Virus record (IMG/VR): IMGVR_UViG_2713897055_000013
Source: a virus
Taxonomy: Duplodnaviria; Heunggongvirae; Uroviricota; Caudoviricetes
Length of the DNA: 6,783 nt
Strand: one strand, 5' to 3'
Of the stretch, positions 1,125 to 6,783 are shown one piece after another. Position 1 is the first letter of the stretch; each line of letters opens with the position of its first letter. A program made the position numbers and the translations under genes. Under the pieces are notes generated by a model. That model was not told the DNA's origin, searched no databases, and saw only the letters and a program-made list of their open reading frames with translations.

Positions 1125-1389
1125 CGCCTGACTCTCCGGTTTTTACGTTGATGGTTGTTACCTGTTCCGCTTCGGCAATCTCCCGTTCTGTCAACGTGGC
1201 AAAGTTTGCCGTCGCTGTGGTCATGAATGCGCTTATCAGTTCGGGATGCTCCTTCGCGTATCCTTCCCCCGCGTGGCGGTCTATTACCCTGATTGCCACC
1301 TTTAAGGCGTGCTCTGTCATGTCTAACGCTTTATATTTCGGCTCTGTTCTGTCTCTGCGCATTTTGGTTATCTCCTCACTCATGCTCAC
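1114..1389 (-). CDS. Hypothetical protein, 91 aa (GTG start at 1387-1389; in-frame ATG at 1381-1383)
   Basis: GAGGTG SD 5 nt upstream of the GTG; overlaps the PerC-like start by 11 nt; same strand as the operon. No family recognised. Confidence 0.45.
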   Translation of the reverse strand: MSMSEEITKMRRDRTEPKYKALDMTEHALKVAIRVIDRHAGEGYAKEHPELISAFMTTATANFATLTEREIAEAEQVTTINVKTGESGDDT

Positions 1390-1576
1390 TTTTACACCTC
1401 ACTTTTTAAAGCGTCTCGCTTCGTCTCACTTGATATTTTTTGATGCTTTATGTGTGTGTTTCATAAGGATTTTTTTTACTCCTCACTTTTGAGCATGTAT
1501 ACAGGTGAGAAAGTGAGTAATCGTGTTAATATTTTGTAAAAACCTCACCATTACTCACTTTTTCTACTCACTTTTT
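1385..1576. repeat. Iteron-like array of CTCAC(T)n repeats flanking an AT-rich core; putative island replication origin
   Basis: CTCACTTTT-type copies at 1385-1393, 1398-1407, 1425-1431, 1482-1490, 1544-1548, 1554-1563 and 1567-1576, plus two inverted GTGAG copies at 1505-1509 and 1513-1517. AT-rich, T-run-rich spacer at about 1430-1480. The array starts at the stop of the 469-aa ATPase gene. Confidence 0.55.
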
Positions 1577-2984
1577 ACAGTGGTCCTACATCATCACCAT
1601 CAATGTAAATCACGGCGTCTTTTTCCAGTTTGGCTAACCATCGCCGCATATTTTTCACGTCATACCCAAGCCGTTTCATGTCATCACGTAACAGCGGGAT
1701 CGTGCACTTGTCGCCGTTCTGTGTGCGTGAACGGATGCACCCCCATAGTGCGGTATGGTTTTCCGTCTTGTTGCCTGCCTCCTCGATGCGTTCCAGTTCA
1801 ACGGGAGGGCGCGGCTTATCCACCACCACCAGCGACGTGATTAACTCCCCGTCAGCGTCGGTAAACAACTCCACCACGCGTAAGTCATATGCGGCTTCTT
1901 TGAGTTCCTCCGCGTCCTTCATTTTGGTGCATGAGATAACCAGCGCTTCGCTTCCTGCGTCCTCCCTGCGTATCCGGTATTCAGCATCCAGTGATGCACG
2001 AAATGCACTGGAACCGCGCGCGCCTTTCGTCTCATCCTTGCCGGAATGGTGAACCACCAGCACCGTGGCCCCTGTGCGTCGTTTCAGTTCGTCACAACCA
2101 CGGATAAACGCCCCCATATCACGGGAATCATTTTCATCATTCCCACCAAAGCAACGCGCCAGCGTATCCAGAATAATCATGCGTACAGGTTTACCCGTTT
2201 CCCGCTCCACCTGACGGGCAGCGATAACCATTTCATCAACATCAAGCGGGACCGCCGGAAAGATGGGACGGTTTACCAGATACAGATTTTTCACCTGCTC
2301 ACCGTGCACAACCTCCCAGGCTTTTACACGACGCGGAACGCCGATACCGCCTTCACCAACCACATAGAGAACAGCGCCATGCGCCACCCTGCGGCCTCCC
2401 CACTGGCGGCCCGTGGAAACGTGACACGCCCACGATCCGGCAAGGAATGATTTATAGGAACCGCTCGCCCCGTATATGCTGCAAAGCGACGATGCCGGAA
2501 TAATCCCCTTTACCACGTAATCAAGCTGTGTGTCGTATCCGGTAGATCCAACGCTCATCGGTAGCGTGGTTTTTCGCTGGGGGATTTTTTTCATGACCAG
2601 GCTTTCCCCGCGTTCCCATGCCTCCCTAAGCCGTGGAAGCTGGTCGCTCCATTCCTCCAGCAATTCGAAATTTTCAGAAAGTAGCCGCGCCTCCTGGACT
2701 CCGGCGATCGCCAGTTTCGTGGCGATGGTTAACAGCTGCGGCTCTTCAATATTTCCGGCGCGTATCACCGTCGCCCTGTATCGCCCATCATCAACAATCT
2801 GGAGGTTATCCAGTTCGCTTAACTGATAACGCCCCAGATAAACGGGAGGGACTGGATCGCCTGCTTTTTTGGCCTGTGCAATGATGTAATGCTCTGCGAA
2901 TGAGTGAGCATCAATACCCGCAAAAATAATCGCATCGGTGTATTTGTCTTGCGGTAATCGTTTTACGTTCGGTGCCAGTTTCAT
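1575..2984 (-). CDS. RecA-fold P-loop ATPase of the AAA_25 / RepA-DnaB-like type, 469 aa; putative island replication initiator/helicase
   Basis: Long ORF with GGGGT SD 6 nt upstream of the ATG. P-loop-like IYGASGSYKSF (aa 172-179), Walker B-like VRMIILDTL, then VLVVHHSGKD and GSSAFRASLDAEYRI blocks typical of RepA-like RecA-fold ATPases. About 100 aa of C-terminal extension could be a DNA-binding domain. Followed directly by the iteron array. Confidence 0.85.
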   Translation of the reverse strand: MKLAPNVKRLPQDKYTDAIIFAGIDAHSFAEHYIIAQAKKAGDPVPPVYLGRYQLSELDNLQIVDDGRYRATVIRAGNIEEPQLLTIATKLAIAGVQEARLLSENFELLEEWSDQLPRLREAWERGESLVMKKIPQRKTTLPMSVGSTGYDTQLDYVVKGIIPASSLCSIYGASGSYKSFLAGSWACHVSTGRQWGGRRVAHGAVLYVVGEGGIGVPRRVKAWEVVHGEQVKNLYLVNRPIFPAVPLDVDEMVIAARQVERETGKPVRMIILDTLARCFGGNDENDSRDMGAFIRGCDELKRRTGATVLVVHHSGKDETKGARGSSAFRASLDAEYRIRREDAGSEALVISCTKMKDAEELKEAAYDLRVVELFTDADGELITSLVVVDKPRPPVELERIEEAGNKTENHTALWGCIRSRTQNGDKCTIPLLRDDMKRLGYDVKNMRRWLAKLEKDAVIYIDGDDVGPL

Positions 2985-3280
2985 TTTTTACCCCTGAATA
3001 CGTTAAGCATCTTTTTTATTTCCTGAATATTGGCGCGTGCTTTCTCCCTGCTGGTTGGTTTACTGCGGGGCGCTGCCTGTACCAGAGAAAAATCACGATC
3101 GAACTGATAAACAGGCATAACGCAATCATATTCGTAGCCTTCACGGCGGTAAGTGATGCGCCGTTCCTCCACGCCTTTAATCGTTACCGTGCCGCCGTAC
3201 TGGTCGCGGTAAATATCACCGCGCGTAAATTTAGGGTGAGTGTTGCCACTGGCAGTTAAGCCAGAATATTTAAGTTTCAT
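2981..3280 (-). CDS. Hypothetical protein, 99 aa, translationally coupled to the ATPase gene
   Basis: Stop TGA overlaps the ATPase ATG (ATGA at 2981-2984); GGAG about 9-10 nt upstream of ATG 3278-3280. No family recognised. Confidence 0.6.
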   Translation of the reverse strand: MKLKYSGLTASGNTHPKFTRGDIYRDQYGGTVTIKGVEERRITYRREGYEYDCVMPVYQFDRDFSLVQAAPRSKPTSREKARANIQEIKKMLNVFRGKK

Positions 3281-3736: not shown

Positions 3737-3960
3737 GGTGTACCCCTCCGCATTTTTTTTTCGTTAGAAATAAGCGTTCTTCTTTCCTGTTCATCGCTCA
3801 GGAATACGCAGACCTCACCGCTAAGGCGTTTAAGTAAGCCGATGATTGCCCCTGATTCGCTGTCGGTCATCATGCCAGGGTAATCCTCTGCCAGTGCGCA
3901 AATAACTTCGATTTGGTGGGCGCGTTCTGCTGCCTGTTGTAGTGTGATTTCCTGGCTCAT
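3685..3960 (-). CDS. Hypothetical protein, 91 aa (MSQEITLQQAAERAHQIEV...); the track's 110-aa version starting at 4017 is less likely
   Basis: ATG 3958-3960 overlaps the stop of the upstream 64-aa ORF (ATGA) and is preceded by a G-rich SD. Its last 22 codons run through an A9 tract and overlap the next gene's SD and start. Confidence 0.5.
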   Translation of the reverse strand: MSQEITLQQAAERAHQIEVICALAEDYPGMMTDSESGAIIGLLKRLSGEVCVFLSDEQERRTLISNEKKMRRGTPCAIKPHQTQQKKQCKY

Positions 3961-4151
3961 AAGTCCACCCCCTGACGAATACGGGCGGCAAATACAGCGA
4001 CACAACCGGACGGGCAACGGCTACGCGCTTCGCGTTCCGTCCAGGCGGTTACGTGGATGATTTGAGATTCTCCGGCACTCAGTGCCAGAAAACGCCACAC
4101 AAAGGCCGTTTGTGTGTGTACAAGGTGTGGGGTATGATTTACGGCAACCAT
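3957..4151 (-). CDS. Hypothetical protein, 64 aa; first gene of the leftward operon
   Basis: Strong SD GAGGAG (plus 4157-4162) 5 nt upstream of ATG 4149-4151; stop coupled to the next gene (ATGA). No family recognised. Confidence 0.5.
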   Translation of the reverse strand: MVAVNHTPHLVHTQTAFVWRFLALSAGESQIIHVTAWTEREARSRCPSGCVAVFAARIRQGVDL

Positions 4152-4836: not shown

Positions 4837-5045
4837 TTAAGCGGTCGTTCCGCGCGCTTCTTGTTCGCGTTCTTTCATCCATGCGATTACGTCTTCCTCA
4901 TACCATCCGCGACGGCGCAAACCGACACGAAAACCCTGCGGGAATTCTCCGGCGTTGATCATGCTTTGCAGCGTGCTGTCTGCCTTAATGTGGATAAGTT
5001 TTTTTTACTTCCTGGCGAAAGATGACTTTTTTTGATTGCTTCCAT
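4837..5045 (-). pseudogene. AlpA/excisionase-family-like small regulator interrupted by a frameshift at an A8 run (pseudogene or frameshift-dependent gene)
   Basis: ATG 5043-5045 with GAGGT SD 8 nt upstream opens a frame (MEAIKKSHLSPGSKKN...) that stops at 4959-4961. The -1 frame continues from the A8 run (plus T8 4999-5006) as ...LIHIKADSTLQSMINAGEFPQGFRVGLRRRGWYEEDVIAWMKEREQEARGTTA to a stop at 4837-4839. That C-terminal segment resembles the AlpA/Xis recognition-helix and wing region. Confidence 0.45.
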
Positions 5046-5541: not shown

Positions 5542-6783
5542 CTAAACGGCTCGGATACCCCTTTTACCACTGGCGAGGGTTACGCCCGTCGCCGCAGCCT
5601 CGACAAATTCGCCCCACCAGCGCATAAGCACGATGCGTTTTTCTATGTAGTTGCTCCGGTTGTATGCCCGTCTGACTTCGTTGGTGTCGACGTGGGCAAG
5701 TGCGGCCTCTATTACGTCCGGCTCAAAGCCTTCTTCGTTCGCTGCTGTGCTGAATATGGCGCGTAATCCATGAGACACCAGCACGCCAGCGAATCCCATG
5801 CGTCGTAATGCTGCGTTAGCGGTCTGGCTGTTCATCGGCTGCTGTGGGTCTTTCAGACTCGGGAAAACATAATCGCGGTGGTGGCTGATTGGTTTCATAG
5901 CCTCCAGCACTGCCATAGCCTGGTCACAAAGCGGGATAACGTGGTCGCGGCGCATCTTCATGCGTCCGGCGGGTATGGTCCAGCGTTGCGCTTCCATGTC
6001 GATTTCTTCCCAGCGTGCCGACGATGCTTCAACGGGACGGGTTACGGTCAGTAACTGCCATTCAATCAGTAATCTGGTCTGCCGTTCTGTTGCCGATACT
6101 GATAAAGCCTGCATAAGCTCCGGCAGCTGTTCGGGGCGGATTGTTGGCATATGTTTTTTTACAGGGGAGGGGAACGCCTTACGCACATTCATAGCCGGAT
6201 TGGCATCAATCATCCCACTATTGGCGGCGTAATCCATTACCTCATTTATACGCTGTAAAACTCGCTTGAGCGTTTCCAGGTTGCCACGTTCCTTGATGGG
6301 GGTAAGCACCTCAACGAACCTGCGAGCGGTCAGGGTGTCTATTGGCGTGTTGCCGATGAACGGGAATACATATTTTTCCAGCGATCGCCAGATGTCTTTA
6401 ATCGTATTGGGGGCCAGATTCTGGCTGATTTTCACCTGGTACCATGCTGTTGCCACATTTTCGAACGTGTTCCCTTGTCTTCGGGCCTCTGTCTCTCTTT
6501 TTTGCCTCTCGTGGTCCTGTGGGTCAGTTCCGGCACGAATTAACGCCCTGTACTCGCTACGGCGTTTTCTGGCATCAGCCAGGGAAACATCATCAAGCGA
6601 TCCAAAACTCAGCAATATTCTTTTTTTGTCCGATGGTCGGTAGTAGGAAAATCTCCAGAGTTTTGATCCGGACGGTTTGATCAGGAGAAAAAGCCCTCCG
6701 CCGTCCTGTAGGGTGTATTCCTTTTCTGCTGGTCTGGCTGCTTTGATCTGTACTGTGGTTAATGGGGGTGTTTTTCTCGCCAT
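5542..6783 (-). CDS. int: Tyrosine recombinase, P4-type integrase (N-terminal arm-binding domain plus C-terminal catalytic domain), 413 aa
   Basis: N-terminus MARKTPPLTTVQIKAARPAEKEYTLQDGGGLFLLIKPSGSKLWRFSYYRP matches the characteristic start of P4-family integrases. C-terminal HGLRAIFST (H-x-x-R) and a terminal RAYNRSNY block fit the catalytic region. ATG is 6781-6783, so upstream signals and the att site are outside the window. Confidence 0.9.
   Translation of the reverse strand: MARKTPPLTTVQIKAARPAEKEYTLQDGGGLFLLIKPSGSKLWRFSYYRPSDKKRILLSFGSLDDVSLADARKRRSEYRALIRAGTDPQDHERQKRETEARRQGNTFENVATAWYQVKISQNLAPNTIKDIWRSLEKYVFPFIGNTPIDTLTARRFVEVLTPIKERGNLETLKRVLQRINEVMDYAANSGMIDANPAMNVRKAFPSPVKKHMPTIRPEQLPELMQALSVSATERQTRLLIEWQLLTVTRPVEASSARWEEIDMEAQRWTIPAGRMKMRRDHVIPLCDQAMAVLEAMKPISHHRDYVFPSLKDPQQPMNSQTANAALRRMGFAGVLVSHGLRAIFSTAANEEGFEPDVIEAALAHVDTNEVRRAYNRSNYIEKRIVLMRWWGEFVEAAATGVTLASGKRGIRAV

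Follow-up and report, generated by a model that had tools for sequence, protein, structure and literature searches.

A putative iteron origin directly 3′ of a RepA-family helicase gene in a phage-inducible chromosomal island of Escherichia coli

Repeat array at the 3′ end of rep

The DNA stretch analysed here, 6,783 nucleotides of the Caudoviricetes virus record IMGVR_UViG_2713897055_000013 in IMG/VR (hereafter the window), carries its long open reading frames (ORFs) all on the minus strand. One of them, rep, encodes an AAA_25 protein (Rep) and is followed by a short ORF and a PerC-family gene (Table 1). The DNA starting at the rep stop codon contains an array of short repeats (iterons) at 1375–1577, which, by analogy with characterized elements, is very probably the replication origin of a phage-inducible chromosomal island (PICI).

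The array comprises ten exact CTCAC cores (GTGAG in the orientation of rep), eight of them direct, with plus-strand starts at 1375, 1385, 1398, 1425, 1482, 1544, 1554, and 1567, and two inverted, reading GTGAG on the plus strand at 1505–1509 and 1513–1517; one degenerate copy, CTCGC, is found at 1415–1419 (repeat family D6). An earlier sequence-only reading of the window had listed six direct and two inverted copies at 1385–1576; the repeats and their location are borne out, whereas the direct count was too low and the left end lies one copy further out. In gene orientation, the iteron unit is AAAGTGAG, an A-tract followed by GTGAG, with six occurrences, and the form CTCACT is taken by seven of the eight direct cores (the exception being that at 1544) and by one of the two inverted cores. 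Neighbouring copies are spaced by 13 and 10 bp in the cluster next to rep and by 10, 17, 13, and 10 bp in the distal cluster, in agreement with the 10–13 bp noted earlier for several copies. The A-tract of the first iteron begins with the rep stop codon TAA (1577–1575, minus strand), and the last two copies (1385–1389 and 1375–1379) are placed inside the 5′ end of the ORF at 1114–1389, so that the array indeed extends from the stop codon of the ATPase gene into the start of the next ORF, as had been read.

The hexamer CTCACT occurs nine times in the window against 1.69 expected, a number reached in none of 200 shuffles. First-order Markov simulation of the whole window (2,000 runs) gave a mean maximum of 1.9 cores per 200 bp and never more than 6, compared with the 10 observed. 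The remaining 6.6 kb of the window hold eight copies of the core and no second cluster of the motif. The region is T-rich on the plus strand (87 T in 202 nt), and repeats of this kind might gather by chance in AT-rich, low-complexity intergenic DNA; however, a model of the region's own composition predicted 0.49 cores and never yielded more than 5 in 20,000 runs, not even reaching six copies, and the positions of the motif are conserved across genera. A chance cluster is thus vanishingly improbable.

Read from rep, the array is ordered as cluster A, a 26-bp spacer, the inverted pair, the central element CCTGTATACAT, one direct copy, a 51-bp spacer, and cluster C (Table 1). Clusters A and C represent a 49-nt duplication with 73% identity (repeat D1). 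The single AT-rich core described in the sequence-only reading is AT-rich as stated, with GC contents of 19% and 25% against 48.5% for the whole window, but consists of two separate spacers (1518–1543 and 1431–1481). Three clusters with 3, 3, and 5 copies are therefore present, one cluster and one spacer beyond the canonical drawing of two iteron sets around AT-rich DNA, and cluster A (1544–1572) opposes the pair at 1505–1517 across the spacer at 1518–1543. The single-strand fold of spacer 1 has a z-score of −4.3. Neither a DnaA box nor a binding site for integration host factor (IHF), a GATC site, or an oriC 13-mer is found in the array, and the lack of the first three fits with a self-contained initiator. 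A scan of 1100–1800 detected no sigma-70 promoter or terminator in the array, and an Rfam scan of the whole window gave no family at the gathering score.

Table 1. Features of the window, with the array first (A4, alignment of eleven origins; D, I, repeat labels)
Feature	Position	Strand	Remarks
Iteron cluster A, three direct copies (cores 1567–1571, 1554–1558, 1544–1548)	1544–1577	−	A-tract overlaps rep stop; AAAAGTG.G invariant in A4
AT-rich spacer 1, 26 bp, 19% GC	1518–1543	.	Between cluster A and the oppositely oriented pair; spanned by inverted repeat I1
Two opposed iterons, GTGAG-AAA-GTGAG on +	1505–1517	+	
Conserved central element CCTGTATACAT (rep orientation)	1495–1505	.	Columns 72–80 of A4 invariant or near-invariant; same for every iteron type
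Single direct iteron AAAAGTGAG	1482–1490	−	Imperfect palindrome (I2) with the inverted pair
AT-rich spacer 2, 51 bp, 25% GC	1431–1481	.	Conserved better than spacer 1
Iteron cluster C, four exact direct copies (1425, 1398, 1385, 1375) and degenerate CTCGC (1415)	1375–1430	−	Overlaps ribosome-binding region and start of next ORF
Codon AAT, Asn445 of Rep	1650–1652	−	Covaries with fourth base of iteron core
C-terminal winged-helix domain, Rep residues 400–469	1578–1787	−	Predicted, AlphaFold2 model of residues 395–469
rep, 469-aa AAA_25 protein	1575–2984	−	Pfam AAA_25
DUF4222 gene	2981–3280	−	Pfam DUF4222, E = 6.6e-24; always directly upstream of rep, overlapping it
Small ORF 3′ of the putative origin, 82–91 aa depending on start	1114–1389	−	No Pfam match; 83-aa protein in relatives
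PerC-family gene	852–1124	−	Pfam PerC, E = 1.2e-43; same operon as rep
ClpP-protease/capsid fusion gene, start only	1 to ~200	−	
Icd-like ORF	3957–4151	−	
AlpA-like helix-turn-helix gene	~4837–5040	−	Pfam/ORF list/synteny
Tyrosine integrase	5542–6783	−	Pfam/ORF list
Several small ORFs	within window	−	

Covariation of the iteron core with Rep residue 445

Within an island, every copy of the repeat has one and the same core, which is GTGAG, GTGGG, or GTGCG. Comparison of 13 E. coli Reps revealed that a single one of 471 alignment columns separates the GTGAG from the GTGGG islands, namely that of residue 445, which is Asn in the former and His in the latter within the motif LGYxxK[N/H]xRRWL. In a set of 75 unique Reps (duplicates removed, at least three iterons each), Asn is accompanied by GTGAG (26 proteins), His or Lys by GTGGG (40), and Ser or Gly by GTGCG (9), the last type having RK[S/G]F in a loop that is longer by one residue; all 75 proteins obey this rule. 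In a neighbour-joining tree constructed with residue 445 masked, the iteron base changes at least eight times, each time together with the matching residue. Four predictions made from the protein sequence before the contig was looked up all held: the Asn proteins P0094, P0099, and P0086 have GTGAG arrays (that of P0086 also with two stray GTGGG copies), and P0003, a His protein of window-like background, has 11 GTGGG copies. Furthermore, the arrays of two RKGF proteins are of the GTGCG type, and four further islands agree with the rule. Asn–adenine and His/Lys–guanine are classical preferred side-chain/base contacts in protein–DNA complexes, and the direction of the covariation is therefore that expected for direct readout.

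The same comparison bears on the alternative offered by the sequence-only reading, that the repeats are binding sites for the PerC-like regulator. What favours this possibility is proximity, PerC being encoded 250 bp downstream. However, PerC is 96% identical between island L002 (GTGAG) and island L007 (GTGGG), five islands (L004, L006, L008, L009, and L012) retain the array and lack an annotated PerC gene within the ~2.4 kb retrieved downstream, and the repeat core follows the Rep residue instead. In addition, the activity of PerC-family proteins has been reported on the LEE1 promoter (PMC11773190). Binding of PerC to the repeats is accordingly very improbable.

Other candidate relations were tried and rejected. 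As determinants of the iteron type, PerC failed for the identity just given and DUF4222 because it is 79% identical in EcCICFT073, a PICI with unrelated iterons. Nor is there support for co-resident islands avoiding the same iteron type, with the code keeping them orthogonal: RM14516 has two His/GTGGG islands (L103/L004) and ST130 two Asn/GTGAG islands (L104/L105), all with AAA_25-type Reps; identical origin specificity is thus compatible with co-residence.

Domain composition and predicted structure of Rep

The AAA_25 domain of Rep (residues 151–318; 149.7 bits against a Pfam gathering cut-off of 27; E = 1e-43) is the only Pfam match of the protein, with none to D5_N, DUF5906, or Pox_D5. The invariant motif GASGSYKS includes K178, the presumed Walker A lysine. 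Rep shows a weak match to RSF1010 RepA (PDB entry ID, 1G8Y; E = 0.007), and its RefSeq relatives are annotated as ‘helicase RepA family protein’. Judging from this domain content, Rep is a RepA-family helicase (superfamily 4, SF4; RecA fold) and putative initiator. The full-length AlphaFold2 (AF2) model is mediocre, with a predicted local distance difference test score (pLDDT) of 68; its N- and C-terminal domains are confident, and residues 131–175 and 315–397 are poor. Because of these two regions, a Foldseek search of the PDB with the full-length model was uninformative, giving weak matches mostly to unrelated α/β folds and a few to RadA/Rad51.

When residues 395–469 were modelled alone, the pLDDT rose to 88.7, and the predicted topology consists of three helices and a β-hairpin (H-H-H-β-β). 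The best Foldseek matches of this segment in the PDB are mostly winged-helix DNA-binding domains (template modelling score, 0.6–0.67; E, 0.1–0.4), including MepR, LexA, DtxR/IdeR, HrcA, ArsR, Fur, and an MCM entry. In the model, residues 446–455 (MRRWLAKLEK) form the predicted recognition helix (helix 3), and residue 445 is located directly before it. The predicted fold and the covariation in 75 of 75 proteins suggest that the C-terminal domain may bind the iterons, with linkage between residue and iterons as a possible confounder.

The N-terminal domain of Rep (residues 1–130; 2595–2984) has no Pfam match and a confident model of alternating β-strands and α-helices. With the D5-type Pri-Rep of EcCICFT073, to which Rep is otherwise unrelated, this domain shares 45% identity at the N-terminus, and among AAA_25-type Reps it occurs as two alleles (~99% or ~45% identical) independent of the remaining protein. 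This domain looks like a shared, swappable module, and is perhaps a docking site for DUF4222 or a host factor.

Conservation among islands and genera

A blastn search with 1340–1620 located the region in 659 of 5,426 complete E. coli genomes, always beside a RepA-family helicase gene; the E. coli copies number roughly 820. The 12 diverged E. coli islands retrieved for comparison all have an array that starts from the stop codon of rep; the full plan is kept in ten of them, and three (L003, L010, and L012) show a truncated distal part or a shorter gap to the next annotated gene. A further scan with one genome per species added 80 loci from Xenorhabdus, Citrobacter, Kluyvera, Pantoea, Erwinia, Serratia, Pectobacterium, Morganella, Gilliamella, and two Oceanospirillales, in most of which a repeated core immediately follows the stop codon of rep. 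In all, the layout 3′ of a homologous rep is shared by ~90 loci across Enterobacterales.

The alignment of eleven origins (A4) shows no variation in the AAAAGTG.G blocks, in the inverted C.CACTTT, or in the central CCTGTATA, while the spacers vary. The first inverted copy (C.CACTTT) is kept in all aligned relatives, and the second is lost in L002/EcCIO42, L004, and L096. Between islands L005 and L095, the origin is 65% identical and the adjacent coding DNA 90%, with the iteron cores still kept. The Xenorhabdus loci (L013–L038), all Asn/GTGAG with 9–10 iterons, often amount to at least two Rep/origin copies per genome (e.g., X. sp. TCT-1, X. bakwenae, X. hominickii, and X. stockiae). Frameshifted rep genes were seen in L037, L084, and L089.

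Satellites possess cis-acting sites for packaging and recombination that are composed of short repeats, and the island encodes capsid and protease genes, so that the array might instead be a packaging signal (cos/pac) or a set of integrase/excisionase arm sites. Yet its link to the stop codon of rep is kept in islands that differ in integrase, integration site, and packaging module, and its sequence follows Rep; moreover, the integrase gene is 4 kb off at the other end of the window, and the window contains no lambda-type cosN resembling the one in EcCICFT073. A role in packaging or recombination is hardly credible on these grounds.

The array within the operon

The repeats could also be operators of Rep with a mainly transcriptional role, in autoregulation or in governing transcriptional read-through towards the ORF downstream, PerC, and the packaging genes, with the origin located elsewhere. 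The array lies inside the operon, in which rep and the following ORF are not separated by a terminator; the ribosome-binding region and start of this ORF are overlapped by the last iterons; and it is established that iteron-binding plasmid initiators often autoregulate. On the other hand, the array is downstream, not upstream, of rep, contains no sigma-70-like promoter, and is the only cluster of the motif in the window, and opposed iterons around AT-rich DNA directly 3′ of rep constitute the proven origin layout in EcCICFT073 and in the pathogenicity islands of Staphylococcus aureus (SaPIs). A mainly regulatory array is therefore unlikely, and a regulatory side effect of Rep binding could coexist with the function as an origin.

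A terminator-like hairpin with a T-run is found directly 3′ of PerC (845–828, minus strand). This hairpin, together with the lack of terminator-like sites in the array, suggests that a single transcript probably covers rep, the array, the small ORF, and the PerC gene. The start ATG of the 83-aa ORF of relatives is ATA (1369–1371) both here and in strain MDP9-27, in which RefSeq starts the ORF at that place; the last iterons contain an in-frame ATG (1383) and GTG (1389). The Shine–Dalgarno place of the small ORF coincides in relatives with the last iteron (GTGAGGA or GTGGGGA), and the binding of Rep might thus also affect translation of this ORF.

Island context

From its integrase, AlpA-like, Icd-like, DUF4222, Rep, PerC, and capsid genes and the synteny of the attachment (att) site, the window is assigned to an E. 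coli PICI, of which it is a part. In the closest genome, that of strain MDP9-27, the island is 98.6% identical to the window and is inserted between yejO and tRNA-Pro/yejM; a published list gives the yejM site for EcCIED1a.1 and EcCIATCC25922, both of them PICIs (Fillol-Salom et al. 2018, supplementary table, PMC6092414). An integrase gene, an AlpA gene, an operon running in one direction, and a dedicated att site are all present, the AlpA frame being broken in the window. Relative to MDP9-27, one extra base in each of two homopolymer runs (4999–5006 and 5027–5033, minus strand) splits the 68-aa AlpA-like reading frame into pieces, and the A-run at 1466–1473 in the array is also one base longer. 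The extra homopolymer bases are either sequencing errors, or else this copy of the island has lost its activator.

The DNA at 430–850, with ~400 nt of non-coding sequence after PerC, separates the replication/PerC operon from the capsid module. It contains a second terminator-like hairpin on the plus strand (611–630), and a C-run (801–808) and very AT-rich DNA (694–724) are also located 3′ of PerC. This boundary is missing or rearranged in some related islands (94% coverage). Most relatives (L002, L004–L007, L009, L011, L096, L098, L104, and L105) have a gene for a single-stranded DNA-binding protein (SSB) right after the small ORF, whereas in the present island and in L001 the small ORF is followed directly by PerC without SSB. 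The DUF4222 protein may be a replication accessory.

Discussion

Origins of Gram-negative PICIs are located immediately 3′ of rep and consist of two iteron sets flanking an AT-rich region; in EcCICFT073, the rep-ori segment maintains a plasmid, and deletion of rep abolishes, and that of ori significantly reduces, the maintenance (PMC6092414). The array described here is best classed, by analogy, as an origin of this known PICI type (Fillol-Salom 2018, PMC6092414), and is an expected feature of the element, since the position and layout of PICI origins have already been described. The arrangement that had been invoked from the sequence, iterons directly downstream of rep as in SaPIs and PICIs, is the same in EcCICFT073 and SaPIs (PMC6092414, PMC9371898). 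Altogether, the PICI host, the position and architecture conserved in ~90 loci, the covariation with Rep, and the syntenic rep-ori of EcCICFT073 uphold the origin proposed in the sequence-only reading. The function is deduced from analogy and covariation, because the tested origins (SaPI and EcCICFT073) use a Rep of the D5/superfamily 3 (SF3) type.

EcCICFT073 matches the present island in the order of its genes (int, alpA, Icd-like, DUF4222, rep, small ORF, [SSB], PerC, and capsid genes) and likewise has an origin directly 3′ of rep, with short iterons in both orientations around AT-rich DNA, and it shares the DUF4222 protein and the N-terminal 130 residues of Rep at the identities given above. 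It differs in that its Pri-Rep is a 584-aa D5_N/DUF5906/Pox_D5 (SF3-type) protein, in contrast to the AAA_25 (SF4, RecA-fold) Rep of the window, and in that the syntenic place is occupied by the repeats GTCTACC/GGTAGAC in place of AAAGTGAG. EcCIO42, a PICI named in PMC6092414, has the same AAA_25 type of Rep, with Asn and GTGAG iterons. As read from these sequences, the island family carries two alternative replication cassettes, with a common N-terminal domain and a different helicase core, C-terminal DNA-binding part, and iterons.

The Reps of SaPIs are helicases of the SF3 type that bind penta- or hexanucleotide iterons downstream of rep with a C-terminal winged helix and load themselves (Qiao et al. 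2022, PMC9371898). SaPI origins similarly have 6–12 such iterons just 3′ of rep, in opposed directions around an AT-rich centre, and the SaPI Rep, a helicase and initiator whose C-terminal winged helix gives the iteron specificity, resembles the window Rep by prediction. The two systems differ in the helicase type (SF3/AAA+ versus SF4/RecA-type AAA_25), in the Gram-positive host, in the absence of sequence similarity, and in the two iteron sets and one spacer of SaPIs versus the three clusters and two AT-rich spacers found here. SaPI origins were reportedly also described by Ubeda et al. in 2007. RepA of RSF1010/IncQ plasmids (PDB entry ID, 1G8Y) belongs to the same AAA_25 ATPase/helicase family. 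The iterons of IncQ plasmids are bound by RepC, a protein distinct from RepA, and RepA itself lacks a DNA-recognition domain, whereas the helicase of the window is fused to a predicted winged helix and an extra N-terminal domain.

Iteron plasmids such as pPS10, F, R6K, and RK2 (Rep_3/RepA, WH1-WH2) have iterons of ~17–22 bp and DnaA boxes, and their non-helicase initiator recruits DnaB. Direct initiator sites beside an AT-rich unwinding region and recognition by a winged helix (predicted here) are common to both, but the array of the window has 8-bp cores at 10–13 bp spacing, no DnaA box, and an initiator with a helicase domain, and falls outside that class. The satellite P4 of enterobacterial phages uses the α protein, a helicase with C-terminal origin binding, at an origin composed of short repeated octamers. 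The α protein and its cognate ori are described in PMC6092414. P4 and the present island have in common the satellite lifestyle, a single multifunctional helicase/origin-binding protein (binding being predicted for the window Rep), and a short-repeat origin; in P4, however, α is a primase and SF3 helicase, a second distant repeat (crr) is required, and the origin is not placed at the 3′ end of the α gene.

Several points weigh against the array being an origin recognized and unwound by Rep in the manner proposed. The literature searched gave no experiment on the AAA_25-type class of Rep, and the tested D5/SF3-type Reps share only the N-terminal 130 residues with that of the window. The full-length model of Rep is poor (pLDDT 68), and the E-values of the fold search with the 75-residue domain are weak (0.1–0.4), as expected for this length. 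The spacers are less stable than the window mean by ~1.5–2 standard deviations and are not the weakest DNA there, and spacer 1 is not AT-rich in the EcCIO42/O157 islands of alignment A4; the unwinding site is uncertain for these reasons, with spacer 2 as the candidate. As to the covariation, codon 445 is only ~75 nt apart from the first iteron, and residue and iterons can recombine as one cassette; island 1 of RM14516 is window-like overall and yet carries a His/GTGGG cassette, and the closest Asn/His pair compared (L005/L095) represents diverged lineages rather than point mutants. Since codon 445 is close to the iterons and the 3′ end of rep moves with the origin as a cassette, linkage contributes to the perfect concordance. 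That all 8–12 copies of an island share the variant base is left unexplained by linkage, and argues for selection by a common reader.

Combining the array, the predicted structure, and the known PICI and SaPI systems, we infer the following route of Rep binding, melting, self-loading, and choice of the unwinding spacer. Upon induction by a helper phage, the leftward operon of the island would be transcribed to give Rep, presumably a hexameric SF4 RepA-family helicase that brings its own origin-recognition module in the form of the C-terminal winged helix. The winged helix may bind the A-tract-phased AAAGTGAG iterons, with Asn445 at the start of the recognition helix reading the A at core position 4. 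Across spacer 1, cluster A faces the inverted pair in opposite orientation, and the longer spacer 2 parts the centre from cluster C. Once bound, Rep may form oligomers, open one of the two AT-rich spacers, and load by itself as the helicase without DnaA or a separate loader, after which the host primase and polymerase would copy the excised circle. For an SF4 helicase, the expected direction of movement is 5′ to 3′.

On balance, we lean towards a second class of self-loading satellite helicase-initiators, of the SF4 (RepA/AAA_25) type, that operates on the origin plan of the SF3 class and in which one residue at the recognition helix sets the replicon specificity (Asn445 for A, His/Lys for G, and Ser/Gly in the one-residue-longer loop for C), mirrored in all 8–12 iterons. 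The characterized PICI initiators are of the SF3/D5 type, unlike the Rep of the window, and what is new is that a large share of enterobacterial PICIs, with origin matches in 659 of 5,426 E. coli genomes, appear to use an SF4 RepA-type helicase fused to a predicted winged helix. The covariation of one residue with one base in every iteron offers a testable rule of specificity and a simple typing of replicons from sequence, and the array and Rep would provide precise cis and trans parts for PICI-based delivery vectors. If the residue reads the base directly, the substitution N445H should retarget Rep from GTGAG to GTGGG origins, such as those of L003 and L098; if this is true, these islands would possess a natural, programmable one-residue/one-base code for origin specificity.

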